Source of the DNA: Cenococcum geophilum
Taxonomy: Eukaryota
Assembly (NCBI GenBank): GCA_050273025.1
Contig: CP158635.1
Coordinates: 7,874,001-7,938,000, forward strand
Direction of reading: 5' to 3'
DNA length: 64,000 nucleotides
A program made the translations under genes and the position numbers. Below are positions 1,456-33,193 of this stretch, piece after piece; position 1 is the first letter of the stretch; every line of letters starts with the position of its first letter. The notes under the pieces are model-generated. The model saw only the letters and a list, made by a program, of their open reading frames with translations. It did not search any database and had not been told where the DNA came from.

Positions 1456-4089
1456 TGTTCGTACTAATTTAATAGTACGAGTGAGTCATATCCCGGGGCA
1501 CGAAATACGTATAGTATTGTATGCTCTTTAGGATAGTGGTAACTGTCTCTTGTATTAAAGCAGACTATGTGGTCTATATACTAATACAACCTCCCCCTAA
1601 TTAGTTAGTACTTCAGGGGTGCACCAAACGCGTAAACGCGTAGTTGGTGTACCGAACGCGTAAGCACGCGGTTGGTATAACAGGTGCTGTAATTATATAC
1701 TAGCGGTACTTAAAAAATGAAACCACCTGTGTACAGCCTCCGTAATTGTTTTAATAGAACCGTAAAACATAAAAGAAATACATAGGAAATCTCTCCCAAG
1801 GTGCCTTCTAGGCTGCCTTCCAGACGGTACTTTAAGCTGGCCGTAAGTCCTGCTTACGGTTTGTAAAGTAAACTATACGGCCTTTTAACGGGCCGTAAAT
1901 AAACCGTACGGCCTTCCGACGGGCCGCAAATGAACCATAAGTGCTCCGTTAGTTACGTTCCACCTATTTTATAACCTTTAGATTAAGCTTATTTGTGTTA
2001 ATTAGGGTTTTTAAAGCTTAACATGGCTTTGCCTTAGTTATGGCATCTGCTGGGTTGTCTCCGCTGCTAATCCATTTGACCTCCGTAATCTTACGTCATT
2101 TATAGGCCTAACGTAAGCACATTAGGTCAACTATAAGCCTCTTCTCCTATATCGTACCTAGTTTAACTAGGCAGTTGTAGAGGGACTTTGAATTGGTATA
2201 TAAAACTAGGGGTAACTGCTCCAGTTATAGAATCTTCTAGACTGTTGATTTAATTGCGGCTGCTATATTAAAGCTATAAGCTAGTGTATATAGTTTAGAA
2301 GCTAGTACACTGCGGGTTACTTATTTGCACTTAATTAAAGACCAGTGCAGTATATTTACGTCCTGATTACGGTCTGTAACTTAGTCGCATTCCATTAGGT
2401 AAGGATATTACGCTTATATTCCGGTCCTTTAAAGTAGTTGCGAGTGGCTTTATATAGCTTATTAAAGGGAACACTAAGGGGGTTGCTCTTAAGGTTGGTG
2501 TAGTAGTGGTTAAGTGCTAGGCCGCGCAGTATGGTAGAGTAGGCTTAGCTGAACTCTTATTTAGGGATATTAGCCTTCTGGCAAAGGTCCGTAAAGATAG
2601 TCAGTTTAAAGTCGAAGTTATCGTTTTCACCACTATACTTAGATTCGTCAGTATAAAGCTTGGCTAGGTTAGCTAGCTCCTTACTATAGGTCTTTACTTA
2701 AGTAGGTTGCGGATCTATAACTTGTAGATCTATAGCTTGCGGATATGTGGCTTACGGATATATGGTTTGCGGATATATAGCTTATAGATCTGTAACTTAA
2801 ATAACAGGGGTAATTTGGTCCGTATTTTAGTTTGTAGGGGTATTATAGTCCGTATTTTGGGTTATAGGGGTATTATAATCCGTAGCGTGGTCCGTAACTT
2901 AAGAGTAGGGTATATTTTAGCTAATAAGGTTAAGTCTAAAGCCGCTTAGGTTTATAGGACGAATTTAGTTAAGTGGGTTAGGTATAAGGCTAGCGATTAC
3001 ATTAAGTTTAGAAGAAGTAAAGAGTTCCTTAATTTCTTGAAACTGGTTTAGGATTTCCTCTTTAGTCCATTCCATTTGGTCCTTCTCGTATATTATATTG
3101 TATAAGGACTATGCAACAGTAACTCGTTTATTCCTTTTAACCCATATACCTTAGTTACGTAAGAGGGTCCGTAGGTTACGGATAGTAGTAGGGTTGTATG
3201 CTTTAAAGATAGCTTCCGTAAAGTCCGTGAAGTCTTCCTAGTATTGCTTCTATAGGTCAACGTTTATAAGCTTAAAATATTTATATTTAAGAACTTTAAA
3301 TTTAATATAGTTGTTAACGTCAGGTATAGACGTAAGGTCGGCTCCCTGCCTCCACTTTTCCTAGCCTTTATTGACTTACTTCCTTAGGTCTGCCATACTG
3401 TATAGTATAGTGTAGTATATAGTGGGTGGAAGAGGTCTTGTAGTGGTCCGTAAAGGCGGTTAATATCCATAATAGTTCGTAGGAGGGTAAGAGGCTTCCG
3501 TAAGGGGTTTGAAAAGGGTTGGGGTACTAAGGGAGGGTATAGTAGGGGTAGGGGTTCAAGGTTTAAGGATAGGGGGTTTAAGGCTCAACGGAGGTTAAGG
3601 GTAGGGGGTTCTGTATAGGTCTGTATTCGCGTCTATTATACTTTTAGTAAACCGTACTAAGACTTAAATAAGTATACAGAGTTGGAAATAAGTCTATAAT
3701 CCCCAACTTCTAACCTTCTAGTAGGTCGTACTAGGAGTCTAAACGGGTAGTTACTGTTAAGTATCGCTTGGGGGGAGGTGTTAAGTAATTGCTAATCTGT
3801 GCGCGCTTACTAATTAGTATTTATACTAATTTAATAGTACGAGTGAGTTATATCCCGGGGCATGAAATACGTATAGTATTGTATGCTCTTTAGGATAGTA
3901 GTGACTGTCTCTTGTATTAAAGCAGACTATGTAGTCTATATACTAATGCGACCTCCCCCTAATTAGTTAGTGCTTTAGGGGTGCACTAGACGCGTAAGTG
4001 GGTGGTTAGTGCACTAAACGCGTAAACGCGTAGTTGGTGTACCGAATGCGTAAGCACGCGGTTGGTATAACAGGTGCTGTAATTATACA
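1456..4089 (-). mobile_element. GalEa-like Copia copy C1, internally deleted (~3.6 kb missing)
   Basis: TG...CA ends; 5-bp TSD GTAAT (1451-1455, 4090-4094); LTRs 1456-1699 and 3818-4089 match C2/C3; gag is fused to RNase H at 2366-2379. Confidence 0.93.
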
Positions 4090-5669
4090 GTAATATATTA
4101 ACCCTTAACCTTATATACCTAAAAAGTACTATAATCTAATTAATAAGTTTAAAAAAATAATTTATAGACTAACTACCCCAGTATTAGGAGGAATATAATT
4201 TTAAAATAAAACTTAAACTTAGTATAATATTAAAGTTCGGTCCGCTATATGGAATATTATAAGAAGAGCTGCTTATAATATAATAATACCTTAAGGAACA
4301 ACTAGAAAAAGAATTTATCCGCCCTAGTTAATTACTATTTACCTTACCTATACTATTCGTTAAGAAGCTAACAGAAGGCTTAAGATTCTATATTAATTAC
4401 TAAGCTCTAAACGCGATTATAATTTAAAACTGGTATCTAATTCCCCTAATCTAAGAGACGCTTAACTGCTTAGTAAAAGTATAATATTTTACAAAGCTTA
4501 ATATAGTCGCTACCTTTAATCAAATTTGTATTTATAAAGGAGATAAGAAATATATGGCCTTCTATATATAATAGGGACTTTTTAAATACCTAGCAATGCC
4601 GTTTAGTATAAAGAACGGTTTTAGTATATTTTAGTAATATATTAATAATACGGCACCGTAAATTCCTTAATATATTTATTACCGCGTATATTAATAATAT
4701 CTTAATCTACTCGTTTTTACTTTCTAAATATTGGAAGTACGTTTAAATAGTCCTTAAACGCCTGCGAGACGTGGGCATATAATATAATATTAAGAAATAC
4801 AAGTTTTACGTGTCTAAAGTTACGTACTTAGGCCTAATTATATCCCGTAATAGAATTAAGATAGACCTTAAAAAAATTGCTGCGATTATAAACTAGGAAA
4901 GTCCTAGCAGTATATAAAATATCTAAGGATTTTTAGGACTTGCAAATTTCTATTATTAATTTATTAATTACTTCTTAAAAATTAATTAGCTATTAGTAAA
5001 CTTAACAAGAAAGAATATAAGATTTAAATGGACTACTAAATATAAATAAGCTTTTAACGACCTAAAATATTATTTTATAACTACTTTAATACTCGCCTAC
5101 TTTAATTCTAACCTTATAAGAAAGAACCGCCTAACATTATCAGCACTTACGCTACTTGCTACCACTGTTAAATCTATATAGGCGATGCGAAGGGACTTTA
5201 TTGTATTAATGCTTAGCCTAGATATTAGTGGTGCCTATAACAACGTACCCCACAAACGCCTCCTATACATCCTTAGGGTAAAGGGCTTCCTAGAATGGAT
5301 TATATAATTTGTTTAAGGGTTTATAGGCCAGAAAAAAACATTACTAGTCTTTAGCGGGTACTAGAGCCCCCCTATTACAGTCGCAATAGGAATACTATAA
5401 GGATCACCCCTCTCGCCTATACTCTTCCTTTTCTTTATAAGCAACCTGCTTAACTCCTTTAAAAAAGGGGCGACTTAGGGGATAGGCTTCGTTAACGATA
5501 TAAACCTAATTATATACGGGCCAACAGTCGTAGAGAATTGTAGAATACTAGAGAAAGCCTATAACACCTATATAAAATAGGCAAGACGATATAGAGTCTA
5601 ATTCTCTCCAGAGAAATACCAGCTAATCCATTTTATAAGAAAACGCAACCAATTTATAGATCTTTAGTA

Positions 5670-12608: not shown

Positions 12609-13292
12609 ATAACTAAAGCTTCTTCTTCTTTATACGCCTAATGTTGTGCCCATACTATTACTGCAATATTATCGCTTAGTAAAATTATACTATCTTTATA
12701 TTCTTATTATGCGAAAGAGGGGTTAGTTTATATTACGTTAATAAGTCCATCTTTATAATAATAGTCCTCTTATTTAAAGTATACTAAAGCGAATATTTAT
12801 TTGTCCTATAACGTTCGCTTTACTTCTAATGCTAATATACGCGTTTTATTACTCTTAATAGTTGTCTAGTTCCCTAGTTAATTTGTTTTAGGGTTTTATA
12901 TTTAATCTACTACTGCTTATCTTAATAGTAAGTTATCTTAAACTTTTACTAAGTTAAAATGTTCTTATAATACGGAACAGAAGGCCTTAAATACATATAT
13001 TACGGCGTTTACTTAGTTACTCCGTCTTAAGAAGGTTTATAAGAAGGTTTATTTTAAAAAGTAGAAACTTATAGAATAAGGTTTATAGGAACTTAGTAAT
13101 AAAAGAATAGATTTTTTTTTAGCTAAGAAGGAAATAAATCTAAGTAGTTCGGCAACTACTGTTTTTAAGTCCCCCTTAGGTAACTTATTTTTTGGTAATT
13201 TTTCTTTATTAATACTGCCTAACCTAATTTCTTCTAATACTCCTATACATTTCTTATAGCGTTTTTTAGATTCTCTAGTAGCTTCTAGGTAG
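12609..13292 (+). pseudogene. Antisense Zn(II)2Cys6/coiled-coil gene of B1 (RIP-inactivated)
   Basis: Colinear with 39459-40143; start ATG mutated to ATA; intron ATACGC...TTAG; 1-nt deletion just before the intron. Confidence 0.7.
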
Positions 13293-14150
13293 TCTTCTTA
13301 TAGCCTATCCACTTAACCTTATACTATATTTTATTATTAATATCCTTATAACTAATAATCTTTAAAACTTGCTATTTATCTTCCTCTTATCCTTTATATA
13401 TATCTACTTTATAGACTAGTAGCTCTATATTTCTATATACTGGCTCTAGTATTGCAATATACTATATAGGGTAGATCTTTATCTTAGCTAATAGGTTTAA
13501 CTTAAATATAACTGGTGAAATCCTTTATATAATTTTAAAAGGTCCTAGTTTAATATAGTTTAACTTCTTACTTAGTTATTAACTCTTAAGATTTTTGTAT
13601 AGTAGCTATACTTTATCCCCCTCCTTAAGATCTAGTCCTTTAGATTTCTTAGCATTATAGTACTTTTTTATTTTTTCTTATACCCTTTTTACTAATTCTA
13701 TAAGGTCCGTATAAAGATTTATTAGTATCTTTATCCTTTCTTTAGCTATACTACTTATTTTTTTTTATACTTATTATAGTAATAATAATATACCTATAAT
13801 TTGCCTTAAATAATAATATGCCTATTCCTTCTTATAGTATTATATTATATATAAACTGCGTAATTAGTAATAATAATACTGTATAATTACAGCACCTGCT
13901 GTACCAACCGCGTGCTTACGCGTTCGGTACATCAACCACGCGTTTACGCGTTCGGTGCACCAACCACCCGCTTACGCGTCTGGTGCACTCCTAGAGCACT
14001 AACTAATTAAGGGGGAGGCGCATTAGTATATAGACTACGTAGTCTACTTAATATAATTAACAGTTACCACCATCCCAAAGAGCATACGATACTATACGTA
14101 TTTCGTGCCCCGGGATATAACTTAATTATATCATTAAGTTAATACAAACA

Positions 14151-14176
14151 CTAATTAGTGAGCGCGCACAGATCAG
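14151..14176 (+). promoter_or_regulatory. Hairpin site at the PBS position (GalEa-type conserved hairpin site)
   Basis: CT(G)AT(C)AGTG-AGCGCG-CACAGATCAG lies directly after the 5' LTR; also present in C3 (28408-28433) and C1 (~3792-3817); no TGG tRNA-type PBS. Confidence 0.7.
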
Positions 14177-14578
14177 TAATTACTTAACACCTCCTACCAA
14201 GCGATACACGACAGCGACTACCCGTTTAGACTCCTAGTATAACCTACTAAAAGGTTGGAAGCCAGGGATTACGGAACCATCACTAACTCTATATACTTAT
14301 TCAAGTCTTAGTACGGTTTACTAGAAGTTTATAAACGTAAATACAGACCCTTATAGAACCCCCTATCCTTAAACCCCTTAAACCTTAAACCCCTCCGGAC
14401 CTTTTACAGAAACCCCTTACCCTCCTATAAACTATTACGTACCTATTAATTACCTTTACGGACCATTATAAGACCTCTTAAACTATTACGGACCCGTTAA
14501 TCGATTTTACGGACCGTTATAAGACCTCCCCTACCCGTTATAAGCTACTACCACCCGCTACATACTATACTATATAGT

Positions 14579-17500
14579 ATGGCAGACACAAGCAAGCAGA
14601 TTAATAAAGGTTAAGAGAAATAGAGACAAGGAGTCAACCTTACGTCTATAACTAACGTTAACAACTATATTAAGTATAAAATCCTTAAATACGGATATTT
14701 TAAGCTTATAAATGACGACCTATGGGAGCAATATAAGGAAGACTTTGCGGACTTTACGGAAGATATTCTTAAAGCTTATAACCCTACTACTATCCATAAC
14801 CTACAAACCCTTTTACGTCACCAAGGTATATAGGTTAAAAAGGATAAACGAGTTACTGTTATACGGTCCTTATATAACATAATATAGGAGAAGGACCAAA
14901 TGGAATAGACTAAAGAGGAAATCCTAGACTAGGTTAAAGTCACTAATAAACTCTTTGCTTCTCCTAAACTTAATAGCATCGCTAGCCTTATACCTAACCT
15001 ACTTAACCAAATTTGTCCTATAAACCTAAGCAATTTTAGAATTAATCTTACGGGCCAAAGCACACCTAGTACTTAAGTTACGGACCGTAATACCCCCATA
15101 AACCAAAATACGGACTAAAACCCTCCCATTACCTAAGCTACAGATCCGTAACCTACCCAAGTCATAGATCCAAAAACTACCCAAGCAAAGACCTACGGTA
15201 AGGAGCTAGCTAACCTAGCTAAGCTCTATACTAACGAATCCAAATACAGCAGTAAAAACGACAACTTTAACTTTAAACTAACCATCTTTACGGACCTCTA
15301 TTAGAAGGCTAATATTCCTAAATAGGAGTTTAGCTAAGCCTACTCTACCATACTACGCGGCCTAGCACTTAACCACTACTACACCAACCTCAAGAATAAC
15401 CCCCTTGGTGTTCCCTTTAATAAGCTATACAAAGCCACATACAACTACTTTAAAGGACCAGAATATAAGCGTAATATCTTTACCCAATAGAATGCGACCA
15501 AGTTACGGACCGTAATGGACAAGAACACTAAAAAATTGACCATAGAGTGCCTGCAAATCCTTATTAAAGACCTCCACCACCTACAGCACGGTCTTAATAT
15601 CAAGCTTTAAACGGACGACTTCCTGCACAATAAACTTATTACGGCTTGCTAGGAAATAGAACCTTATAAATACACCTATTACAAGCCCGCAAACACCGTA
15701 GCTAGCCTTATTAACGATTTACAGTCCTCTATTACAACGTACAAAGCCTCAAACCCACTAGGCAGTACTTAAGCCTTTATTACGGACCTATAAAATCCAC
15801 AAACCGACTCAGATGCCTACTTTACGGACCGCCGCTACTGCTAGCAGCACCCACATTGACCAGGTCCTACCCATAACCCCCACACTAACTCCCATATAAA
15901 AGCATACCCCCATAGATAAACCAATTAGAGGTGCTTTATATATAGCAAGGAAGGATATTAGTCTATAAGGCACACCTAGGAAGAACATAATAAGTCTAAG
16001 AAGAGATTTAACAATTAGATTAACCAGTTTATCTTAGACTATAAAAAAAAGAAAGCAAAGGAGTCCCTTAACAAGTCAATGGAAGCCCTTATAATTAACT
16101 TTAACTTAGACACTCAGAAACAGAAGACCTTAGAGACGTTCCTAACCACTTTCGGACCTTTTACGGACGGCTAAGCCTTTAATATTACGACCGTATTAGC
16201 TAACCGCTCCTTTATACACTTAATTGCACCCAAAAACTAGCCCATAAATACACCCATTAGACCTATTACGGACATTATAGACCGCGAATAGGACCCATTT
16301 ATATATATTACTATAGAACGCTATACCCCCAAAGAATTCTATAGCGTTATAATCGATATAGGTGCCTTTAAGAAGTCTACTATAGGTTACGGACAGTACC
16401 TTATATATAAGACTACCGTAAATAACAATATAAACATTAATACTATGCAAACTAGGGCCGTAAACGTCTAATTCGGCATTAGCTTAACCGCATTAATTAA
16501 ATTAGCTAAAGTTAAAACTCCAATTAGCCTAGTTAACTTCCATATAGTAAAAGCGGATACCCCTTTCCTACTCTGCCTTACGGACATGGATAGGTTATAG
16601 GTCTACTATAATAACGTTACGGACACCTTAATTAGCCCTATAACTGCCCCAGGAAGTAAGCATATTACCCTACCAATTATACAACGATTTGGACACCCGT
16701 TCCTTATATAGGGAGAGACTTTACGGACCTCTATTCAGGAATCTTTTAACCACAACCCATACTACCTTACCAGTACTAAAATCCACCGACTGCACCGCCG
16801 TTTTAGCTACCTGTTAGCCGAATAGCTATATAGAGTCCTTAAACGCTCTAGATATAACGTCAATAGGAAAGCAATTAACCACCTAACCAAATACTGCTCT
16901 TTTTACCAGAAATACGGACGTTCCCCAGGCAGATTCAAGTTTACCCTTTATAAGGACCTTAACTTCAACCACTTAGTATACGTGGACATTATATACATTA
17001 ACGGCAGTCTAGTATTATATATAATTAATAAGGCAACCCGCTATTAAGCCGCCCGTTAATTGCAAAATATATCTATAAAACATACTTAGGACATTTTACG
17101 GACCTACTAGATTGATATATACCTTAGACCTCCTAAGTATATTACCCACAACGCTAGTAGGAACTTTATCAGCAAGGAATTCCAGTAGTATATTACGGCC
17201 ATAGCTATATCAACAAAAGCCGTTCCAGTTAAGGCTTATTAAGCGAGCTTACCTAGCTTTATAGAGAGCTTACTAGATTATTATGGACAAGTATAAGAAC
17301 ATCTAAAAGGAACTAGCTTTATAGATAGCCGTAAAAGCCGTTAATAACACCACTAGCCCTAACGGACTAGTACCTACCCTCTTAGTCTACGGAGCCTACC
17401 TAAGGATAAGCAAACTAGACCCTCCTGCCCTATCTATTACGGATCAAGTAGCTATAATACGGAAGGCAATAGCCGAAATAGTTAAATTACGGGCCAAATA

Positions 17501-19517
17501 AACTATTAATAACGCCCTATACTACCGAAACGGACCTAATATAACCCTAGTACACAACCTCCCGCTTAATTCTAAAGTCCTCATATAGCGTAAAAGCAGC
17601 AATTGGACTAGACCTTACCGTCTACTAACCGTAGAAGATAAGACCTACTGTATACAGCTCCCTAGCGGACCAATAAGCTTTAGAAGCACATCCATAAAAC
17701 CCTATTTTCGGTCCGAAAACACCTATAACGTCAAGCCAGACGAACTAGAAGCACCTGCCGAGTTAGACAAACCAGAAGCACCCGCCAAATTAGATAAACT
17801 AGAAGCACCCTTACCTACCCCAGAGGTCCCCCAGAAACCTACTAAACCTACTAAACCTGCCATAAAGCGTGGCCAAGGACGCCCCTACAAGAACCCTATA
17901 ATAGAGAATTACCTAACCTCTATAGGCACATCCGCAAAGCAATCTCCGCCTATAGATATATTAGTTCTAGTACAGGAAACCCCTTTTACGGACTTATAAC
18001 GCAAAGAGATTAACGGACTACTTAAAAAGGGCGTCTTTACGGTTATAACGGAGAGAGAGGTTCCGCAAGGCGTCCGTATATTTAACTCGCGCTTTATTAA
18101 CAAAATTAAGCACCCTAGTACTAATAAAGCCTTTAAAAAGTCAAGGCTCGTTATACAAGCTTATAATAACTAGGGAAAGGACTTAGTCCTTACGCAATCG
18201 CCTATAATCTAATGAGTCAGCCAACAGATTATACTTATACTTACCCCCGGCCTATAGTAAAGTAAACCCGTAGCTCTTTACCTACGGGACATCTTATAAG
18301 CCTACATACAATCCAATACCTACCTAAGTAGGGACATCTTTATATAACTACCGCTCGAGCTTAATTTGCAACTAGGAATAATTTTATAGGTTATAAAACC
18401 ACTTTACGGAGTGCTAGAAGCTAGAAACCACTGGTTTAAGACGTATTACTAACATTACGTCCGTAAACTTAAGATAGAGCAGTTAGCCTATAACCCTTAC
18501 CTCCTATACACCCTATTAAACGGCCTTAGTATTATTAGGCTCTAAATAAATAATACTCTCTTTTTAGCGAACCAGACTTTTGCGGATATAGAGGAAACTA
18601 AACTATAAGAAGCTAAGTTCCTAGCAAAGCCGCAAGAGTAGTTAACTAAGTAGACTCCAATTAAGTTTAACGGAGGCTTAATTACATAAAAGGGCAACTT
18701 AATCTAGCTAACCTAGGAACGCCAAACTTAAAACCTAAAGCTTATTACAGTAAAGCCTACGGACCTTACCAGTTCCTACGGAGAGACCTATAAGACTATA
18801 AATACAAAGGACCAATACGCTGCACAGCGTGTAAGAGGCGCCTATATTGCCACAGTCTGCCAACCTAAATCTGCCTACGACTTATCCTTTACGGCCCAGG
18901 CAGTAAATCCGCAAGAAAAAAATATTAAGCAGCTTAATAAGCGCATTTAATAGCAGATTAATAATGCGATAAAAGGACTTACTTTTATACCGCTAGACCT
19001 AAACTCTATTAGCGTAATAGTATTTACAGACGCCTCCTTCGCCAATAATAGGGACCTGTCATCGCAAATCGGCTTTATAATTATACTTACGGACCGTAAT
19101 TAAGACGCAAATATACTATATTGGTCTTTAATTAAATACAAATAAGTAACCCGCAGTGTACTAGCTTCTAAACTATATATACTAGCCTATGGCTTTAATA
19201 TAGCAGCCATAATCAAATTAACGATCTAGAAGATCCTACAATTAGAGTAGCTACCCCTGGTTTTATACACCAATTCAAAGTCCCTCTATGACTGCCTAGT
19301 CAAACTAGGTACAATATAAGAGAAGAGGCTCATAGTCGACCTAATATGCTTACGTTAGGCCTATAAACGACATAAGATTACGGAGGTCAAATAGATTAGT
19401 AGCGAAGACAACCCAGCAGACGCCATAACTAAGGCAAAGCCGTGTCAAGCTCTAAAAACCCTAATTAACACAAATAGGCTTAACCTAAAGGTCATAGAAT
19501 GGGTAGAACGAGACTAA
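14579..19517 (+). pseudogene. Copia gag-pol polyprotein of C2, RIP stop codons
   Basis: RIP-reversed: DLWEQYKEDF; CFICSKEGCWS; IDTGA at ~16352; LHRRF.H...C..C; KSRLV(V)QAY; LRDISQAY; KPLYGV(P)EAGNHWF; LQTDDTL; FTDASFAN; NPADAMTK. The true start could lie further upstream. Confidence 0.88.
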
Positions 19518-20802
19518 CGGAGCACCTACGGTCTATTTACGGCCTGTCGGAAGGCCGTACGGTTTATTTACGGCCCGTTAGAAGGCCGTATGGTACATTT
19601 ACGGCCCGTTAGAAGACCGTATAGCTTATTTTGCGGACCGTAAGCAGGACTTACGGCCGACTTAAAGCACCGTTTAGAAGGCAGGCCAGAGGGCACCTTA
19701 GGAGGGATTTCCTATATATTTTCTTACATGTTCTACGGTTCTATTAAGGCAATTACGGAGGCTATATATAAGTGGTTTCATTTTTCAAGTACCGCCAGTG
19801 TATAATTATAGCACCTGCTATACCAACCGCGTGCTTATACGTTTGGTATATTAACCACGCGTTTACACGTTCGGTACACCAACCACCCGCTTACGCGTCT
19901 GGTGCACTCCTAGAGCACTAACTAATTAAGGGGGAGGCGCATTAGTATATAGACTACGTAGTCTACTTAATATAATTGATAGTTACCACCATCCCAAAGA
20001 GCATACGATACTATACGTATTTTGTGCCCTGGGATATAACTTAATTATATTATTAAGTTAATACAAACAAATACCTAATTATTCTATATGTAATTAATAT
20101 AATGTCTTAAATACTATTCTAGCATTTAGTTTAATCTTTCTATTTATCTATCCATCTGCAGATAATATATAATAGAAGTTACTACTCTAACTTCTTATTC
20201 CGCTAAAAATACCTTCTAAAATACTGCTATAAATCTTAGGTCTTTATCCAATATAATCTTACTTAATACTCCGTGTTTTATAAATACTTCTTTTATAACG
20301 GAACCTTATAGTAAGTACTACGATAGGCTTATTAATGGGCTAGGTATATAGGTAATACAAAATAAAGTTAACAACGTAATAACAACTGGTGGAGTAGTTG
20401 CCTAATAGATTAACTATAAGAAAGGAACTATCTAGGTAGGGACTAAGGGTCCTTAAATATATAACCGTACTCTTATAAAATCCTTCTTATACGTAATATA
20501 CGTATACTCTATTTACTCTATTATAGATTATACAGATTGTATAGATTATATAGATTACGTTATATAACCTTAGTTACCATTCCTTATTATATAGCTCTAT
20601 TAGCTTTATCCTAGACTATATTTAAATTAACTAACTAGCTTCTTCTAACTCTTCTTTAAGTAGTTATAATATTATACTTAAAGCGTCCATAACACTATCT
20701 CCCTCCTTTTTATCTTTATCCTTAAAGATTCTAAATATCTCTAAGTTGTTTACTAGAGGTATAATATCCGTCTAATTAATTTAGTTAATATTATTACTTA
20801 TT

Positions 20803-21509: not shown

Positions 21510-22550
21510 TCTTAGTATAGCCTATCTACTTAACTTTATACTATATTTTATTATCAATGTCTTTATAGTTAACAATCTTTAAAACTTACTATTTATCTTC
21601 TTCTTATTCTTTATACGTGTCTGCTTTGTAAATTAATGGCTTAATATTCCCATATACTAGCTTTAGTATTGCGATATGCTATATAGGGTAGATCTTTATT
21701 TTAGCTAGTAGGTTTAACTTAAACATAACTAGTAAAATCCTTTACTTAATTTTAAAAGGTCCTAGTCTAACATAGTTTAACTTTTTGCTTAGCCATTAAC
21801 ACTTAAAATTTTTATATAGTAGCTATACTTTATCTCCCTCCTTAAGATCTAGTCCCTTAGATCTCTTAGTATTATAATACTTTTTTATCCTTTACTATAC
21901 CGTCTTTACTATTTCCGTAAGGTTTTTATAAAGATTTATTAATATCTCCATTCTTTACTTAGCTATATTACTTATTTTCTTTACTTAATATAGCGATAGT
22001 AATGTTCTTAGCTTATATCCATAATTCGCCTTAAATAGTAATATACCCATTTCTTTTTATAGTATTATATTATTGTTTATACCAACTTAATAGTACAGGC
22101 GAGTCGTATCCACGGGCACGAAATACGTGTAGTATCGTATGCTTGTTTGGATGGTGACTGTCGATTATATAAAGCAGACTACGTGGTCTATATACTAATA
22201 CACCTCCCCCCTAATTAGTTAGTGCTTTATAAGTGCACCAGACGCGTAAGCGAGTGGTTGGTGCACTGAACGCGTAAACGTGTACCTGGTGTACCGAACG
22301 CGTAAGCCCGCGTTTAGTATAACAGGTGCTGTAATTATATACTGGCAGTACTTAAAAAATGAAACCACCTATATATAGCCTCCGTAATTGCTTTAATAAA
22401 ACCATAGAACATAAAGGAAAATACATAGGAAATCTCCCTGAGGTGCCGTCTAGGCTGCCTTCTAAACGGTGCCCCAAGCTGGCCGTAAGTTCTGCTTACG
22501 GTCCGTAAAATAAACCGTACGGCCTTTTGACGGGCAGTAGATGAGCTATA

Positions 22551-22725
22551 AATCAGATTTTAAGGGCCGCTAAGGCGCTAGTGCTAAGCGAACCAATGGC
22601 GATTTTTTATCCCGGGGATAGAAAATCGTAATTAGTTAATTTAACCACCCTGCAAAATTCGGCAGGTTACGTGAGTTTACTAAATTCTACCGTAGCTTTC
22701 TACCGTTTTCCACCTATACCGTATA
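22551..22725. mobile_element. Unclassified 175-bp insertion with ~10-bp TSD and an internal hairpin
   Basis: Absent from C1 and C2; flanked by ATGAGCTATA / ACGAGCCATA (differing only by C>T); hairpin CGATTTTTTATCCC-G-GGGATAGAAAATCG. Confidence 0.65.
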
Positions 22726-24769
22726 ACGAGCCATACGGCCTTCTAACGGGCTGTAAACATACCATAGGTGCTCCGTTAGTCCCGTTTTACCTATTTTATA
22801 ACTTTTAGGTTAAGCTTATTCGTGTTAATTAGGGTTTTAAGGGCTTAACACGGCTTTGCCTTAGTTATAGCGTCCGCTAGGTTGTTTCCGCTGCTAATCC
22901 ATTTAACCTCCGTAATCTTACGTTATTTATAGGCCTAACGTAAGTATATTAGGTCGACTATAAGCCTCTTCTCTTGTGTTATACCTAGTTTAACTAGGCA
23001 GTCGTAAAGGGACTTTAAATTAGTGTATAAAACTAGGGGTAACTACTCTAGTTATAGAATCTTCTGGACCGTTAATTTAATTGCAGCTGCTATATTAAAT
23101 CTATAAGCTAGTGTATATAGTTTAAAAGCTAGTACACTATAGGTTACTCGTTTGCACTTAATTAAAGACTAGTATAGTATATTTGCGTCCTAATTGCGGT
23201 CCGTAAGTATAATTATAAAGCTAATTTGTAATAATAGGTCTTTGTTATTAGCAAAGGAGGCGTCTATAAATGCTAGTAGGCTAAGGGAATTTAGGTCTAG
23301 TGGTATAAAAGTAAGTCCCCTTGCTGTATTGTCAATTTGTCACTAAATACGCTTATTAAGCTGCTTAATATTTTCTTCTTACGGATCTACTACCTAGGCC
23401 GCAAAGGATAAGTTATAGGTAGATTTGGGTTGGCAGACTATAACAATATAGGCGCCTCTTGCACGCTATACAGCGTATTAGTCCTTTATATTTACGGTTT
23501 TACGGGTCTCTCCGCGGGAACTAGTAAGGTCCGTAGGCTTTGCTATAACGAGCTTTAGGTTTTAAGCTTAGCGTTCCTAAGTTAGCTTAATTAGGTTGCC
23601 CTTTTATATAATTAGGCCTCTATTAAACTTAATCGGATTCTGCTTAGTTAACTACTCTTACGGCTTTACTAGGAACTTAGCCTTTTATAGTTTAGTTTCT
23701 TTAGCGTCCGTAAAGGTCTAGTCTGCTAGGAATAGGGTATTGTCTATTTAAAGTCTAATAATACTAAGGCCGTTTAATGGGCTGTATAGGAGGTAGGGGT
23801 CGTAGGTTAACTATTCCATTTTAAGCTTACTAACGTGATGCTGGTAGTACGTCCTAAACCAGTAGTTCCTAGCTTCTAGTAATCCGTAAAGAGGTTTTAT
23901 AACCCGTAAAATTATTCCTAGTTATAGGTTAAGCTCATGGGGTGGTTGTATAAAGATGTCCCTACTTAGGTAGGTATTAGACTGCACGTAGGCTTGCGAG
24001 ATATCCCGTAAGTATAGGGCTACGGGTTTAGTTTGCTGTAGTCCCGGCGTAAGTGTAAGTATAATTCGTTGGCTAACTCGTTAAATTATAGGCGATTGCG
24101 TAAGGACTAAGTCCTTTCCCTTATCGTTATAAGCTTGTACGATAAGCCTTAATTTCTTAAAGGCTTTATTAGTACTAGGGTGCTTAATCTTGTTAATAAA
24201 GCGTAAGTTAAATATACGGACGCCTTATGGGACGTCTTTCTCTATTATAACCGCAAAGACACCCTTTTTAAGTAGTCCGTTAATCTCTTTACGTCGTAAG
24301 TCTGTAAACGGGGTTTCCTATACTAAAACTAATATATCCGCAGGCGGAGATTGCCTTGCGGATATTCCTGCGGAGGTTAGGTAATTTTCTATTACGGTAT
24401 TCTTAGTTACGGGGTGCTTTTAGGGGTGTCCTTAACTACGCTTTATAGTAGGTTTAGTAGGTTTAGTGGGTTTCTAGGGGACTTCTAGGGTAGGTAAGGG
24501 TGCTTCTAGTTTATCTAATTCGGCGGGTGCTTCCGGTTCGTCTAGTTTAATAGGTGCTTCTAGTTTGTCTAGTTTAACGTCATAGGTGTTTTTAGGCCAA
24601 AAGTAGGGTTTTACGGACGTGCTTCTAAAGCTAGTTGGCCCACTAGGAAGCTATACGCAGCATATCTCGTTTTCTACGGCTAGTAGACAATAAGGTCTAT
24701 TCTAACTGCCGCTTTTACGCCATATAAGGACTTCAGAGTTAAACGGGAGGTCGTATACTAGGGTCGTAT

Positions 24770-24993
24770 TGTGGGAGGGTACGACCACTCTCAGATAGGA
24801 AAGTCACAGTGCCGTCTGTCTGTCGGTCAGTCGGTCGTCAGTCGTAATCAATCAGTAGGAAAGCAGTCAGTAAGAAGAAAGGAAAGAATGTATTCCGGTA
24901 GGTCGTGATGGTCCAAGAAGGAGGGAAGCCGAAGGCTCTATAAATACAGGAAAATGCCAAGGTACTAGGCGTGAGACATTTTACCCCACCACA
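24770..24993 (+). mobile_element. Solo-LTR-like element, family D (copy 2)
   Basis: TGTGGGAGGGTA...TACCCCACCACA; 4-bp TSD GTAT, confirmed against the empty site in C2 (~17540); little RIP. Confidence 0.85.
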
Positions 24994-27900
24994 GTATTAG
25001 GTCCATTGCGGTAGTGTAGGGCGTTATTAATAGCTTGCTTAGCCCGTAGCTTAACTATTTTAGTTATTGCCTTCCGTATTACAGCTGCTCGTTCCATAAT
25101 AGACGGGGCAGGAGGGCCTAGGTTGCTTATCCTTAGGTAGGCTCTATAAACCAAGAGGGTAAGTACTAGTCCGTTAGGGCCAGTGGTGTTATTAATAGCT
25201 TTTACGGCCATCTGTAAAGCTAGTTCCTTTTAGATGTCCTTACACTCGTCTGTAATGATCTGGTAAGCTCTCTATAAGGCTAGGTAAGCTCGCTTAATAA
25301 GCCTAATAGACTAGTACGCCTTAACTGGAATAGCTTTTGTTAATATAGCTATGGCTATAGTATACTGCTAGAATTCCTTACTAATAAAGTTCTTACCAGT
25401 GTTATAGGTAATATACTGCGGAGGTCTAACGTATGTGTCGATCTAGTAGGTCCGTAAAATATCCTAAGTGTATTTTATGGATATATTTTATAACCAACGA
25501 GCAACTTAATAGTGGGTTGCCTCGTCGATTATATGTAATACTGGACTGCCGTTAATATATATAATGTCCACGTATACTAAGTGGTTAAAGTTAAGGTCCT
25601 TATAAAGGGTAAACTTAAATCGGCCTAGGGAACGTCCGTATTTCTGGCAGAAGGAGCAGTATTTGGTTAGGTGGTTAATTGCCTTCCTATTAACGTCGTC
25701 ATATCCAGAGCGTTTAGGGACTCTATACAGCTTTTCGGCTAACGGGTGGCCGAAATGGCGGTATAGGCGGTAGATCTTAGTACTAGTAAGGTAGTATAGG
25801 TTATAGTTAAAAGATTTCTAAATATAGGTCTGTAAAGTCTCTCCCTATATAAGGAACGGGTGTCCAAATTGTCGTGTAATTAGTAGGGTAATATACTTAC
25901 TTCCTAGGGCAGTTGCGGGGCCAATTAGGGTGTCCATAACATTATTATAGTACACCTATAACCTGTCTATGTCTATAAGATAGAGTAGGAAAGGGGTGTC
26001 CGCTTTTACCACGTAGAAGTTAACTAGGCTAATTAGAGTCTTAACTTTAACTAATCTAATTAATGCGGTTAAGCTGATGCCGAATTGGACGTTTACGGCC
26101 CTAGTTTGCGTAATATCAATGTCCGTATTATTATTTGTGGTGGTCCTATATATAAGGTATTGTCTATAGCCTACGGTAGACTTCTTAGAGGCACCTGTGT
26201 CGATTATAACACCGTAGAATTCCTTAGGGGTATAGCGTTCTGTAGTAATATATGCAAATAAGTCCTGCTTATAATCTATAATATTTATAACGGGGGTACT
26301 TACAGGATAGTTTTTGGGCGTAAGTAAGTGTATAAAGGAGTGGTCAGCTAATACGGTCGTAATATTAAAGGCTTAGCTATCCATAAAAGGTCTAAAAGTA
26401 GTTAAGAACGTCTCTAAGGTCTCTTATTCCTAAGCGTCTAAGTTAAAGTTAATTATAAGGGCTTCTATTAACTCATTAGGGGGCTCCTCTACTTCCTCTC
26501 CTTCGTATTCTAAAATAAACTGGTTAATACAGCTATTAAGTCTCTTTTTAGACTTATTACATTCTTCCTAAGTATGCCTTGTAGACTAATATCCTTCCTT
26601 ACCGTATACGAAGCACTTCTGGCTAGTTTGTCTGCGGGGGTATATTTTTATACGGGGGTTACTACGGGGGTTATAGGTAGGACTTAGTCGGTACAGGTGC
26701 TGCTAGCGGTAGCGGCGGTCCGTAAAGTAGACGTCTAAGTCTATTTACGGATATTAAATATCCGTAACAAAGGCTTAAGTGCTGCCTGGTAGGTTTAAGA
26801 CTTCATACGTTATAATAAAGGAGCGTAGGTCATTAATAAGGCTAGCTAAGGTATCTATAGGCTTATAGCAGGCGTACTTACAGGGCTCTACTTCCTAGCA
26901 GGCCGTAATAAGTTTATTATACAGGAAGTCGTCCGTTTAAAGCTTAATATTAAAACCGTGCTGTAGGTAGTAGAGGTCTTTAATAAGGATTTGCAGGCAC
27001 TCTATAGTCGATTTTTCAGTATTCTTATCTATTACGGTCCGTAGCTTAGTCGCATTCCATTAGGTAAGGATATTACGCTTATATTCCGGTCCTTTAAAGT
27101 AGTTATATATAGCTTCGCATAGCTTATTAAAAGGAACACTAAGGGGGTTACTCTTAAGGTTGGTGTAGTAGTGGTCGAGTGCTAGGCCGCGCAGCATAGT
27201 AGAGTAGGCTTGGCTAAACTTTTATTTAAAAATATTAGCCTTCTGGCAGAGGTCCGTAAAGATAGTTAGTTTAAAGTTAAAGTTATCGTTTTCGCCGCTA
27301 TACTTAGATTTGTCGGTATAGAGCTTAGCTAGGTTAGCTAGCTCCTTGCCGTAGGTCTTTAGTTAGGTAAGTTGCGGATCTATAACTTACAGATTTATAG
27401 TTTGCGGATATATAGCTTGCGGATCTGTGACTTAAATAACGGGGGTAATTTAGTCCGTATTTTGGTTTGCGGGGGTATTACGGTCCGTAACTTAAGTACT
27501 AGGTGTGCTTTAGCCCGTAAAATCAATTCTAAAACTACTTAGGTTTATAGGATAAATTTGGTTAAGTGGGTTAGGTATAAGGCTAGCGATTACATTAAGT
27601 TTGGAAGAAGTAAAGAGTTCCTTAGTTTCTTAAAACTGGTCTAGGATTTCCTCTTTAGTCTATTCCGTTTAGTCCTTCTTGTGTATTATATTATACAAGG
27701 ACTGTATAATAGTAACTCGTTTATTCCTTTTAACCCATACACCTTAGTTACGTAAGAGGGTCCATAGGTTACGGATAGTAGTAGGGTTGCATGCTTTAAA
27801 GATAGCTTCCATAAAGTCCGCGAAGTCTTCCTAGTATTGCTTCCATAGGTCAACGTTTATAAGCTTAAAATATTTATATTTAAGAACTTTAAATTTAATA

Positions 27901-30900
27901 TAGTTATTAACGTCAGGCATAGACGTAAGGTCGGCTCCCTACCTTTACTTTTCCTAGCCTTCATTAACTTGCTTCCTTAGGTCTGCCATACTATATAGTG
28001 TAGTATAGTACGCAGTAGGTAGAAGAGGTCTTGTAGTGGTCCGTAAAGGCGGTTAATATCTATAGCGGTTTGTAGAAGGGTAAGGGTGTCCGTAAGGGGT
28101 TTTAATAGGTCCGTAATAGTTCGTAAAAAGGTAGGGGGTCTTCGTAAGGGGTCCGAAAAGAGGTCGGGGGTATTAAGGGAGGGTGTAGTAGGAATAGGGG
28201 TTTAAGGTTTAAGGGTAGGGGGTTCCGTATAGGTCTGTATTCGCGTCTATTATACTTCCGGTAAACCGTACTAAGACTTAAATAAGTATATAGAGTTGGA
28301 GATAAGTCCGTAATCCCCAACTTCCAACCTTCTAGTAGGTCGTACTAGGAGTCTAAACGGGTGGTCGCTGTCGTATATATCGCTCAGGGGGAGGTATTAA
28401 GTGATTGCTGATCTGTGCGCGCTTACTAATCAGTGTTTATACTAACTTAATAGTACAGGCGAGTCGTATCCACGGGCACGAAATACGTATAGTATTATAT
28501 GCTTGTTTAGATGGTGACTGTCAATTGTATAAAGCAGACTACGTGGTCTATATACTAATGCACCTCCCCCCTAATTAGTTAGTGCTTTATAAGTGCACCA
28601 GACGCGTAAGTGAGTGGTTGGTGCACTGAACGCGTAAACGCGTACCTGGTGTACCGAACGCGTAAGCACGCGTTTGGTATAACAGGTGCTGTAATTATAC
28701 AATTATATATAAACTATATAATAGGTAATAATAATACCTAATTATTCTGTACGTAATTAATATAGTGTTTTAGATACTACTCTAGTGTCTAATTTAGTCT
28801 TTCTATTTAACTATCCGTCTGCGGATAATATACGGTAGAAGTTACTACTTTAACTCCTTATTCCGCTAAGAATACCTTTTAAAATACTGCTATAAATCTT
28901 AAATCCCTATCCGATATAATCTTACTTAGTGCTCTATATCTTATAAATACTTCTTTAATATAGATTCTAGCGATATCTTCTACTAATATTTCTTCTATGT
29001 ATGCTATAAAGTATCTCTACTTCATAAGCTTATCTACTATTACTAAAATTATATTATAATCTTATCTGGTAATAGGATCTCTTAACCTTAGTAACTTAAT
29101 AATAAAGTCCTATAATATAACTTCCTATAGTCTCTCTAGTATTTTAATAGGTTATAGCCCTCTATATAGCTTATGCCTTATTAGTTTATTCCTCTAGCAA
29201 TTTAAATATTTCTTTATAACTTTTCGCGCTAAGCCCTAAATTCTATTAATAATATACTCCTCTTAAAGTCTTAACACTAAGCCTATAGCTCCATTATATT
29301 CTTAAGTTAATCCCCTATAGAAATTTTCTATAAAATGCTCTACTATACTTTTTAGGATATACTTTACTTCTTAATTTTTGTATATATCTATTTATGGATC
29401 TTTTAGCTATACCTTTAGAATTCTTTATATCTAAAAGCTTTCTGGTAACTTATAAACCCTATCTAGTTCCTCTTAAGTTATTATAATTTTTAGATAATTA
29501 TACCTAATTAGTCCGTCTGTATCTTTTTATAGTAAAGCCCCTAATAGCTTTTTATTGTTTTATAGTTTAGTCTTCTAACTTAAAGTATCTGCTTATATAT
29601 TATTTATGCCCTTAGTATACTAAATCTTAAAATGGTATTCCGTAAGCATCTCTACCTATTTAACCTATCTTTAGTTAAGTTCCTTTATTATTAGGAATTC
29701 TATTAGGTTCTTATAATCTATTTTAACTATAAATAGTTTCTCTATACCTTATAAGAATGCTCTTTATTTCTTTAGTGCTATAACTATACCTAATAACTCC
29801 TTATTATAGATGTTATAGTTTAACTCTAGTAGTGTTATCTTTTAACTATAGTATGCTACTAGGTGCTATCTATCTTAGTATTTCTATATAAAGTATACCC
29901 CTAGTATAAAGTCTAATATATCCGTTTTTATAACCGTCTCTAGTCCTAGTTAATAGATTTTAAGAACTGGCTCCTAGGTAAACAACTCTTTAACTTTTTT
30001 AAAGAGTTCCCTTTATTCCTCTGCTTATGCCTATAGTTCTTTTTTCTTTATTAATCGCGTAAATGGTTTAATATCCTTTAACTATTACGCTATAAACTTT
30101 TTATAGTAATTGCAAAACCCTAGGAACGATTTTAACTATATAACGTTCTCTAGTTCTTACTAATTTACTATAGCCTTAATCTTTTTTAGATCTATACTAA
30201 GTTAGCCTAGTTTAATAATAAATTTTATAAAATTGGTTTTCCTAATAAAGAACTTGTATTTCTTAATTACTACTAGTATTTATTCCTCTTATAGTCTCTT
30301 TAAGACCTATTTAACGTATTCCCCGTATTCTTCCTTTATTATTAAGTAGATAATAATAATATTAAGATATACTCTAATAAATTTATCTAAGTGTTCTTCT
30401 AATATATTGTTAATATATTTCTAGAATATCGCTAGTATATTTATAAACCTAAATTGTATAACTAATGGTTTATATAGTTTTTCCTTTAATTTAAAGGCTA
30501 CCTTTTATTTGTCGCCTTCCTTAATTCTAATCTAATGGTACGCCTATCTTAGATCTATCTTTGTAAAGATTTATATATTACTTATCCTGTCTTAGATTTT
30601 GCTAATTAAGGGTAAAAAATACCTATCCTTTCTAGTAATGCTGTTTAACTATCTATAGTTAATATATAGCCTTAGTTTACTATTTTTCTTTAGTATAAAT
30701 AGTACTGGATAACCCGCTAATAACTGTAATAGTCTAATATATCCCTTTTATAAGTTTTCCTAGATAAACTCTTTTAATGCTCTACCTTCTTCTTTGGTAA
30801 GCTTATAGATTAGAAAAAACCTTAAACTTATTCCTAGTTTTAATTCTATTTTATAGTCCTATACTATATACTCTAATAGCTTTTTACTTTCTAGTGACCA

Positions 30901-33193
30901 TAGTTTCTTGCTATACTTATAATATCTTTTTAGTATATAGCTTAGTCCTTTTTCTGTTTCTTTATAGGTCGCTCTTACTTAATACTATACTAACTTAGCT
31001 TATTATTACGTCTTATATTGTTAAGTATTTCTAATATTAACCTAACCTATAACCTAATCGATCTTTAGATTATATTTCTATAACTAAGGCATTCCTAGTA
31101 CTGCCTTATTATTCCCTAATAGTAATATATTAAAAGACATCTTAATCTATCTCCCTTTAATAGTTAACTAAATAGGTCCTGTTTTAAGATTAATAATGCC
31201 TCCTCTATAGGTTATTAGATCTCCTAAAATTGTTACTAATAGGTAAGGGTGCTTCTTTTTCCTATATGGTAAACCTATCCTTTTAACTGCTATTAGCGAG
31301 ATATAGTTCCTTATTGCTCCACTATCTATTAATACCTTAAACTGTTAATCTTACCACTTAACTTATAAATTTAGGTGTCATCCTTAAATTTCTTTAAGGG
31401 TCTAAGGCTCTACTACTAGTTCCCTCTAGTTTTATAGGCCTCTACTTTTCCTAACTATTAGTTACTTAATCTGGTTTATACTTAGTCCTCCTTTAGCTAA
31501 TACTTAGTTTGCTTTTTATCTTTAATATACTATAGATATATATTTTTTAGGCATTCTCACTACTATTATCCGTTTAGGCATTCTTCTGTAAGGAATCTTT
31601 CTAGCTAAAGTATTAAGTCTCTTAACTCCTAAACTTCTACTAGGTGCCAGCTATATATATACTTAATATTTTTATATTTTTATTCTTCTACTATCTAATA
31701 TATCCTTATAGGGTATTTTTAATACTTATCCTTAGGTGCTCTATATATATTATACGCATTATCTACGTATATAATTTATACTAATATATAATATGCCTGG
31801 TGTTTTAGGTTAACTCTTAGCTCGTTTTTATCCTTAAGTTTAAACCTTTCTCATGTTAATCTAAACGTCGCGACTTTATTTATAGGTACTAAAATACGTC
31901 TTTTATTTCTCTAGTCCTCTAAACGCTCCTTTAAATCCTTTAATATTATAATTAAGGCTCCTTTAGATTCTTTAATATTATAATTAAGGCTCCTTTAATG
32001 TGATTTATAGCCTTTTCCGTAATTAGGTAGTCTTAAATAACTTTCTCATCTAACTATATATAAAAATCTTCCCACTTATCATTATGCCTTTGCCTATACC
32101 ACTTTTGGTATAGCTACTAAAGTATATACGGCTCGTCTATAAGGAAGTATCTTTTTATTACTATATTGTAATAGCCTTTAATGTATCGTTCTTCGAACCT
32201 GGTTAGAATCCCTAAATCCTCTTCTTATTTTAGTTTAATAAGCCACTTAGCTTTTAGTGTGCCTATTCTAGGCCTATTAGTGATTCTTTATATAGGTACT
32301 TAGTCCCTTATACGGCCTAGTATACTAGATCTTTTGTTTAGTTTCTGCTCTTGCTATAAGGTAATTCTTACTCTAAACTCCTTTATAGTTTCTTTCCTTT
32401 CGCGTCTTATAAGTGGATCCTTAAAGTCTCCTCGCTTCTTAATCTCGTTAATAGTCCTTATTTATGTCTTAAAATCTTAGTTCTATAGAATTCTTAATCC
32501 TAAGCTTACTTCTGTCTTAAGCTTTGCTCCTACCTTAGTCTAACTAGGCTTAGGTGTTCCTATCTTATCTTAAGAGTTTTAAATCTTACTTGTCTTGTCT
32601 TAAGAGTCTTATACCTATAGGAAACTCTATCCTAAGCTTATTTGTATATCCTTAAACTAAGCTATTGCCCTGCTCTATTGGTTTCTATTCATTATAGGTC
32701 CTAGGGTATACCTTATCTTATCTTTGTTACGGACGCTTTAAGTACAATATTACGTCTACTTGGAGAAGAGACGGAAGAAGCTAGTTGGTTAATTTAGGCA
32801 CGGTCTAGGATGGAGCCGATAGAACCATATAACGAGGAATAGTAACTAAGGTCACATAATGTGCTACGTATTGAACGAGAGGAACGAGAGGAACTTACGT
32901 ACCTTACGTATAAGACGTACATTACGTATAAGAAGGATTTTATAGGAGTACGGTTGTGTATTTAAGGACCCTTAGTCCCTACCTAGATAGTTCCTTCCTT
33001 GTAGTAATTCTTAGAATATAATTAGAGTTAATCTATTAGGTAACCACTCTACCAGTTATTATTACGTTGTTAACTTTTGTACTTGCATTTCCTATATACC
33101 TAGCCTAATAACGAGCCTATCGTAGTTCTTGCTACAAGGTTCCCTTATACAATTACTACCTAGTTATAGTATTAATATAAGAAGTCGAATAAC

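Follow-up and report, generated by a model that had tools for sequence, protein, structure and literature searches.

A sense-oriented array of an 8-nt word in a Copia retrotransposon family of Cenococcum geophilum

The window analysed here is a stretch of 64,000 nt of the Cenococcum geophilum genome (contig CP158635.1, positions 7,874,001 to 7,938,000), all of which was searched, and it contains a Copia retrotransposon, C2, that has been degraded by repeat-induced point mutation (RIP). C2 belongs to an intact, probably active Copia family that carries a selected array of the 8-nt word TTACGGAC, oriented in the sense direction, with about 20 copies between the long terminal repeats (LTRs). The motif has TTACGG as its core; AC follows in most copies and a further C in many, and as an RNA oligonucleotide it takes the form UUACGGACC.

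The word array in C2 and in an intact relative

All 17 sense-strand sites that the initial annotation had listed in C2, from 14456 to 19087, proved to be exact plus-strand matches to TTACGGAC, and the single opposite-strand copy was found at 18459 as described (Table 1). For the C2 internal region (14151-19798), Markov models of order 1, 2 and 3 predicted 0.13, 0.87 and 3.95 sense copies, respectively, and the highest count among 500 simulations was 10, compared with the 17 observed; these models were trained on the element's own 14151-19798, so that much of the signal was already absorbed. The whole window contains 38 matches; 100 dinucleotide shuffles gave 1.24 ± 1.04, and not one of them reached 38. 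Between 14201 and 19700, TTACGG occurs 32 times, and TA stands directly 5' of 45 of the 70 CGG triplets. The copies C1 and C3, on the minus strand of the window, repeat the mirror motif as had been noted (three sense copies in C1 and 11 in C3), and Copia E (45.9-51.4 kb) is indeed not enriched, with no copy in either orientation.

Three of the C2 copies are in the leader and 14 in coding sequence. Ten of the latter read NTT-ACG-GAC (hydrophobic-Thr-Asp), three read TTA-CGG-ACC (Leu-Arg-Thr) and one reads x-TAC-GGA (Tyr-Gly). The statement that the copies fall in different reading frames therefore needs qualification: three frames are used, but one of them holds ten of the 14. Three copies are, as had been noted, the palindrome TTACGG-A-CCGTAA, and they are those at 15078, 15503 and 19087. 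The palindrome is present at 3/17 sites in C2 and at 3/20 in the intact relative L010, the remaining sites having a single CGG; the wider core CGGACCG (CGG-A-CCG) occurs at seven of the 20 L010 sites.

Relatives were collected by a scan of metagenome contigs, which yielded 79 loci, with an alignment of the closest homologues. Most of these loci are further copies of the C2 family, from two metagenome samples that also contain copies of the Gypsy element B. One of them, L010, has a single uninterrupted open reading frame (ORF) of 1769 codons (3998-9307; GC 0.49), whose product contains Copia domains only: residues 749-896 match gag_pre-integrs and rve, and residues 1175-1396 match RVT_2. An LTR pair, one gag-pol ORF (in L010) and an integrase upstream of RVT_2 identify C2 and L010 as Ty1/Copia elements. 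C2 itself has 70 in-frame stops (codons read as X in two read-through translations) and changes frame near 17235. A protein search with its read-through reverse transcriptase (RT) region returned an uninterrupted homologue with 77% identity (P0003), and the more distant named relatives are from Leotiomycetes (Erysiphe, Podosphaera, Monilinia and Sclerotinia).

Between its LTRs, L010 carries 20 sense copies and one antisense copy of TTACGGAC. Seventeen of the 20 are in the ORF, where they stand in unrelated contexts; only the copies of the leader and the 3' untranslated region (UTR) lie within short repeats. When C2 was aligned with L010, 15 of the 17 C2 sites were already TTACGGAC in L010. In agreement with the earlier claim that RIP cannot make the CGGAC core, RIP accounts for at most two of the 17 sites, one having been TTACGGGC and the other a TTGC-type state, and it erased four further ancestral sites in C2, a fifth falling in an alignment gap. 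Among the family loci with a usable match, sense copies outnumber antisense copies in 75 of 77, and the other two have none of either. The locus L002, which shows little RIP (GC 0.50, TA/AT 1.08), has 11 sense and two antisense copies in 3.8 kb, L001 has nine and one, and the least RIP-affected copies are as motif-rich as the degraded ones. C2 and C3 differ almost exclusively by transitions, and C3 often has TTATGG, TTACAG or TTATAG where C2 has TTACGG, from which it follows that the C and the G are ancestral; a few sites alternate between TTGCGG and TTACGG. The motif array predates RIP, and RIP is not its cause. An artefact of RIP on k-mer counts was rejected on the 20 sense copies of the intact L010 and the 11 in 3.8 kb of L002.

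Most copies in C2 probably outlasted RIP because the word has neither CpA nor TpG. RIP and k-mer analyses should therefore be interpreted with caution: a word that is conspicuous after RIP has degraded the DNA may be an ancestral functional element that persisted for lack of CpA and TpG. As a separate observation, the CpG steps of TTACGG are frequently mutated (to TTATGG, TTACAG and TTATAG) in C3 and in a degraded Gypsy copy, L068:9600-14620, which indicates that hypermutation here strikes CpG too, beyond CpA and TpG.

Codon choice, conservation and orientation

Synonymous-codon shuffling, a check put forward in the initial annotation, left the enrichment in place. With the protein and the codon pool kept fixed and the natural intact L010 ORF as input, 2000 shuffles gave 1.28 ± 1.10 sense copies and a maximum of six, compared with the 17 present; for the antisense word, one copy was observed and 0.046 expected. 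When every word of 5 to 7 nt was compared with such shuffles, without prior selection, TACGG, TTACGG and TACGGAC ranked highest, TTACGG occurring 27 times in the ORF (3.8 expected) and TACGGAC 22 times (2.4 expected).

The Copia protein is itself shaped to carry the word, through Thr-Asp, Leu-Arg-Thr or Tyr-Gly and through ACG-GAC codons. Thr-Asp occurs 24 times in the L010 protein, 2.4-fold more than the 9.8 expected from composition, and 18 of these 24 pairs are encoded by ACG-GAC, whereas among the other 128 Thr codons ACG accounts for only 20. ACC-GAC, which is likewise without CpA or TpG, is used once, so that the codon choice is not accounted for by a need to avoid RIP targets. Peptide contexts that could accommodate the motif number 19 in L010, and 17 of them do carry it; eleven more distant homologues have one to four such contexts each, and a closer relative (P0006) has eight. 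A second word, TCCGCAA, is enriched as well (eight copies, 0.67 expected). It was rejected as an antisense form of the array: six of the eight read x-Pro-Gln, and three of these six come from one 15-nt tandem repeat in gag (L010:4921-4957) that encodes T-x-P-Q-P three times.

Conservation within the family points in the same direction. L002, L001 and L008 form a lineage that is 81-84% identical to L010 in nucleotides. In L002 (84% identical), nine of the 12 L010 sites covered are exact. Counting a codon as in-motif when its third base lies within the motif, and considering positions at which the amino acid is unchanged, L002 has the identical codon at 29/32 in-motif positions and at 688/1007 positions outside (Fisher p=0.0035). 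The corresponding values are 24/27 and 662/973 for L001, and 34/34 and 673/1001 for L008, which is partly RIP-affected. The motif copies are thus maintained by purifying selection. Further away, L007 (71% nucleotide identity) has two sense copies and no antisense copy in 1.5 kb, and L069, L070, L072, L075 and L078 (59-63% protein identity) have zero or one copy in 2-6 kb. The array is thus a trait that arose within one Copia clade and has been conserved there.

The orientation bias is not imposed by coding. Counted over 12 homologues, the synonymous coding capacity is 31 sense to 19 antisense copies, and 23:18 if P0006 is left out; given this capacity, the 17 sense copies among 18 in the L010 ORF have a binomial p of ~5e-4 to 2e-3; since both orientations could be encoded almost equally well, the 17:1 bias is real. 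Together, the leader and 3' UTR of L010 (753 bp) contain ten sense TTACGG and one antisense, the highest density in the element (12 per kb in the leader, 16 per kb in the 3' UTR), although some of these copies are in short tandem units, which alone preserve one orientation. The LTRs of L010 and C2 have no copies. Along L010, 17 of the 20 copies are within the first 3.6 kb.

With these data we considered whether the array could be a by-product of mutation or composition without function, arising by convergence under RIP, by a preference for RIP-proof codons or by a codon-pair bias of the host. The word is RIP-proof on either strand, the intact copy has a mild RIP-like skew (TA/AT 1.36-1.39; 35 GTA and seven GTG), and up to two of the 17 window sites are RIP-made, all of which would be compatible with such an origin. 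It is largely refuted, however, and we regard it as very improbable: the intact ORF-bearing copy carries 20 copies, the excess over synonymous shuffles is 13-fold, the equally RIP-proof ACC-GAC is almost unused, and the non-coding leader and 3' UTR carry copies. Moreover, two neighbours within this nest lack the word (Copia E throughout, Gypsy B in its body), and ACGGAC is not enriched in 34 kb of flanks with normal GC (21 observed, ~17 expected). The word is therefore not a genome-wide habit.

The loci also include about 497 kb of flanking DNA beyond the Copia family, in which 35 TTACGGAC matches were counted. Nine were unmasked Copia leaders, and five lay on one strand of L028:11.5-16.1 kb; most of the others marked the beginning of LTRs, either of Gypsy B or of a further LTR family that likewise opens with the word, right after the polypurine tract. 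The L028 element is a Gypsy unrelated to Copia, from the metagenome samples with most copies of the Copia family. It carries eight sense and no antisense TACGGAC, and five sense and no antisense TTACGGAC, against a Markov expectation of 0.3-1.9. A more degraded sister copy, L068, has TATAGAC, TACAGAC, TATAAAC or TGCGGAT at all eight sites, and as RIP only changes C to T and G to A, the CpG step has its ancestral C and G at each of the eight sites in L028; one of these sites may descend from TGCGGAC instead of TACGGAC.

Candidate readers of the word

We propose that a host-encoded, sequence-specific factor would read the word on Copia RNA. Single sites would be weak but numerous, and their combined effect would serve export, stability, translation or recruitment to particles. 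A host-encoded reader is suggested by the sharing of the word between two unrelated elements and by the Copia encoding nothing extra, and action on RNA or another strand-specific form by the orientation bias and the absence of the word from the LTRs. A reader of this kind is our leading proposal, held at a little short of even confidence. With slightly more reserve, we think that a Copia clade and a Gypsy family may independently have written the 8-nt word of a host factor, most likely an RNA-binding protein, some 10-20 times, altering their own proteins in doing so. The 17:1 bias, the word-free LTRs and the presence of only three or four paired CGG/CCG sites fit an RNA or strand-specific reader better than a reader of DNA.

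The family is likely expressed. RNA-type contigs (run X1) cover L010 3728-9188 almost continuously at ~99% identity, and the RNA-Seq run X12 covers most L010 bins. One X1 contig skips 34 nt of the leader (L010:4018-4053); the ends of the skipped segment, AA..AG, are not intron-like, and it is probably a copy variant in a repeat region. Adenosine-to-inosine editing, which would turn Thr into Ala, was not seen on the motif A among the 40 of 176 contig differences that were listed, although contigs lose rare variants, and distant homologues mostly have no Ala at the motif Thr sites.

Several observations weigh against an RNA-level reader. The contigs prove neither transcription nor strand, and the raw reads of run X22 include only 34 from the element, mostly from the LTR and almost none from the body. 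The predicted unpaired probability is 0.42 for the motif and 0.49 for controls, the CGG being mostly paired, and no Rfam match was found on L010. Convergence in Gypsy depends on one less-degraded copy and one sister copy. Fungal zinc-cluster sites typically have a CGG core, three or four of the sites are perfect DNA palindromes, and the half-site CCGTAA is enriched on the sense strand (13 observed, 3.5 expected), as a dimeric DNA binder would explain. Finally, the sites to which VANC21 binds on DNA are described as being in one orientation as well (PMC5735166).

These last points make up much of the case for an array at the DNA level, that is, sites for a host transcription factor (zinc-cluster, bZIP or similar) that would serve as an internal enhancer or an anti-silencing platform, as in Ty1 or VANDAL21. 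The 5' bias of the L010 copies would suit such a role, and so would the example of Ty1, in which the promoter runs on into the TYA ORF and factor sites are located within it (PMC3384299). A Trichoderma bZIP is reported to bind TACGGAC by one-hybrid assay in yeast and by electrophoretic mobility shift, but according to the same source any 4-mer from it was also sufficient, which makes the parallel weak (PMC12963027). We consider a DNA-level array unlikely, though the strongest of the alternatives, as the LTRs, where promoters lie, are without copies, the ORF bias is 17:1 despite near-equal coding capacity, the sites extend over 5 kb, well beyond the start of the element, and they are dispersed and made by point changes rather than by tandem repetition as in VANDAL elements, in an element that encodes no additional protein.

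Single-stranded RNA viruses have dispersed packaging signals in the form of stem-loops with covarying stems. By analogy, the element's own Gag might read the copies as packaging or dimerisation signals; as in the viruses, many small signals would be placed within coding RNA while the protein is preserved. The copies are confined to the sense strand of the transcribed region and reach their highest density in the leader and 3' UTR, and some pairs of motifs are able to form hairpins. TTRCGG is followed by CCGTAA within 60 nt in ten of 14 cases (5.06 expected, P=0.008). Once the immediate palindromes were excluded, this pairing was no longer significant (7 versus 4.56 expected, P=0.13). The Copia word is linear and is common to two elements with unrelated Gag proteins, and presentation in hairpin loops of the viral type was rejected because the motif shows no loop preference. 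A Gag reader thus seems improbable.

Three other readings were dropped or received no support. N6-methyladenosine (m6A) has the consensus DRACH. Each motif contains GGAC, and the m6A core in yeast is given as RGAC (PMC6667471). However, DRACH outside the motif is not enriched (117 versus 119.0 ± 6.5), GGAC outside the motif occurs 33 times (25.7 ± 3.6 expected), and TTACGG without the AC is found ten times (2.5 expected). The selected unit is therefore the whole word and not a methylation core. The anticodon loop of tRNA-Arg(ACG) may resemble UACGGA, and no local tRNA-Arg(ACG) gene was found in 58 loci. A complementarity to the 3' region of 18S rRNA was abandoned since a match of 6-7 nt is expected by chance.

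The initial annotation interpreted the array as binding sites for a CGG-binding protein and named the Zn2Cys6 protein of Gypsy family B as a candidate. To see in it the recognition sites of some sequence-specific factor is reasonable, but the named candidate is unsupported. It is true that the Gypsy B LTRs open with the motif (TG/TA-TTACGGACGC at five places). There, however, the word forms one arm of an imperfect terminal inverted repeat, TGTTACGGA...TCCGTTACA, and is present once per LTR; none was found in the body of B, the word being restricted to the LTR starts. No Zn2Cys6 cysteine pattern (CX2CX6C...-type) was found in the six frames of the window, even when Cys-to-Tyr changes by RIP were allowed, nor Zn_clus in the first ORF of B or in the intact homologues P0272, P0274 and P0278, the 3' half of B (36.7-40.2 kb) lying outside the Pfam scan. 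These proteins show only Retrotrans_gag, Ty3_capsid and a CCHC knuckle, besides CX(n)CX4CX2H-type motifs. The first ORF of B (33149-36748, plus strand) is unusually long, with 925-1003 aa in the three intact homologues, and has a C-terminal extension of ~600 aa with three CX(4-8)CX4CX2H-like motifs and no Pfam domain; this extension may be what looked like a six-Cys protein. With one copy of the word per LTR, in a single family, the evidence for a link between Copia and B is weak, and binding of the Copia array by a Zn2Cys6 protein of B is the least probable of all the readings, to the point of being negligible.

Comparison with known systems

Transposon motif arrays that recruit a factor, additive RNA words and factor sites inside gag are already known, from VANDAL/VANC, the Mmi1 determinant of selective removal (DSR) and Ty1, respectively. 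In Arabidopsis, VANC21 targets YAGTATTAY arrays in VANDAL21 (PMC5735166). The Copia array resembles these in being a dense, short, family-specific motif in one orientation, where density counts over single sites, but VANDAL21 is a DNA transposon whose motifs are described as mainly non-coding tandem repeats, and VANC, a product of the element itself, binds DNA in double-stranded form (PMC5735166). The Copia family has the dense motif in one orientation, whereas the non-coding tandem repeats and the element-encoded binder of the VANC type were not found: most copies are dispersed in coding sequence and arose by point changes, the element encodes gag-pol only, and tandem duplication would leave the strand bias unexplained.

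The Mmi1 DSR consists of repeats of the hexanucleotide UNAAAC in meiotic transcripts of fission yeast (PMC4077057). It is also fungal, and it likewise comprises many short words on the sense strand of each transcript, which act additively through one RNA-binding protein, although, as described there, it marks host mRNAs for destruction (PMC4077057). As in a DSR-like array, the copies in L010 are numerous and confined to the transcribed strand inside the transcript region (20:1). The Copia word is, in contrast, 8 nt long and unrelated in sequence, and it has been kept by selection in a transposon, to which it would presumably be beneficial. Ty1, a Copia-type element, has promoter and enhancer sites inside its TYA (gag) ORF, for example Tye7 E-boxes, so that sites for host factors also lie in coding sequence downstream of the LTR; as reported, they are few, belong to several factors and are within the first kilobase (PMC3384299). 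The array described here repeats one word about 20 times over 5 kb, in one orientation and with none in the LTR.

Literature searches with the exact strings TTACGGAC, GTCCGTAA, TTACGGACC and TACGGAC returned only the Trichoderma bZIP paper and an unrelated 16S paper, and the topic of retrotransposon, m6A and fungus returned nothing relevant. Within these exact strings and this one topic, we found no precedent for an LTR retrotransposon with a word repeated ~20-fold through its ORF at the expense of the protein, or for convergence on such a word between Copia and Gypsy. If the word is a true docking site, it would offer a handle on a host factor used by retrotransposons in filamentous fungi, and could itself be used as bait. 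To our knowledge, little is known in these fungi about such host factors beyond RIP and RNA silencing. It would also mean that the coding sequence of a transposon can hold a further code, at the level of nucleotides, with enough force to reshape the protein, and that a previously undescribed addressing signal links fungal retrotransposons to a host RNA pathway.

The features are collected in Table 1. C2 and C3 each sit inside copies of Gypsy B (12092-13879 and 20070-22073), the window being a nest of B, C and Copia E.

Table 1. Coordinates of the elements and word copies (window positions unless a locus is named)
Feature	Position	Strand	Basis
Copia C2 (LTR-leader-gag/protease/integrase/RT/RNase H-3' UTR-LTR), RIP-degraded	13880..20069	+	LTR pair by self-BLAST; RVT_2 match
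C2 5' LTR, no motif copies	13880..14150	+	self-BLAST
C2 leader (5' UTR): three TTACGGAC, four TTACGG, all sense	14151..14578	+	
C2 gag-protease-integrase frame from ATG 14579; 37 RIP stops; 11 of 14 coding motif copies	14579..17236	+	
C2 integrase C-terminus, RT and RNase H frame; 33 stops; three motif copies	17235..19514	+	
C2 3' UTR, ~31-nt repeats each with TTACGG/TTGCGG (5+1 sense, one antisense)	19515..19798	+	
C2 3' LTR, no motif copies	19799..20069	+	self-BLAST
TTACGGAC, leader; also TTACGGAC in L010	14456..14463	+	
TTACGGAC, leader; RIP-made from TTACGGGC	14486..14493	+	
TTACGGAC, leader	14507..14514	+	
TTACGGAC, Val-Thr-Asp frame, palindrome TTACGGACCGTAA	15078..15085	+	
TTACGGAC, Phe-Thr-Asp frame	15288..15295	+	
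TTACGGAC, Leu-Arg-Thr frame, palindrome	15503..15510	+	
TTACGGAC, Ile-Thr-Asp frame	15780..15787	+	
TTACGGAC, Phe-Thr-Asp frame	15822..15829	+	
TTACGGAC, Phe-Thr-Asp frame	16161..16168	+	
TTACGGAC, Ile-Thr-Asp frame	16266..16273	+	
TTACGGAC, Tyr-Gly frame	16387..16394	+	
TTACGGAC, Leu-Thr-Asp frame; family-variable site (L010 TTGCAGAT, L006 TTGCGGAC)	16578..16585	+	
TTACGGAC, Val-Thr-Asp frame	16617..16624	+	
TTACGGAC, Leu-Arg-Thr frame	16721..16728	+	
TTACGGAC, Leu-Arg-Thr frame	17096..17103	+	
TTACGGAC, Phe-Thr-Asp frame	17986..17993	+	
TTACGGAC, Leu-Thr-Asp frame, palindrome	19087..19094	+	
Sole antisense TTACGGAC of C2	18459..18466	-	
Copia C3, sister copy: 11 sense and one antisense (24611) TTACGGAC	22069..28708	-	
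Copia C1, partial and rearranged; sense copies at 2587, 2890 and 3446	1456..4134	-	
Gypsy B 5' LTR; starts TGTTACGGACGC, terminal-inverted-repeat arm, outside the array	32725..33147	+	
Gypsy B 3' LTR; same start, ends ...TTCCGTTACA	40252..40674	+	
Gypsy element unrelated to Copia	L028:10117-16304	+	RVT_1, RNase H, rve

Two further repeats were seen in the Copia family. The LTR at 13900-13990 has three tandem units of another CG-rich word, CTTACGCGTTCGGTGCACCAACCAC-like, which differs from the array motif. The 3' UTR (window 19515-19700; L010:9308-9420) has three to four units of ~31 nt, and in each of them TTACGGCC and a downstream GGCCGTA could pair to form a 7-bp hairpin.

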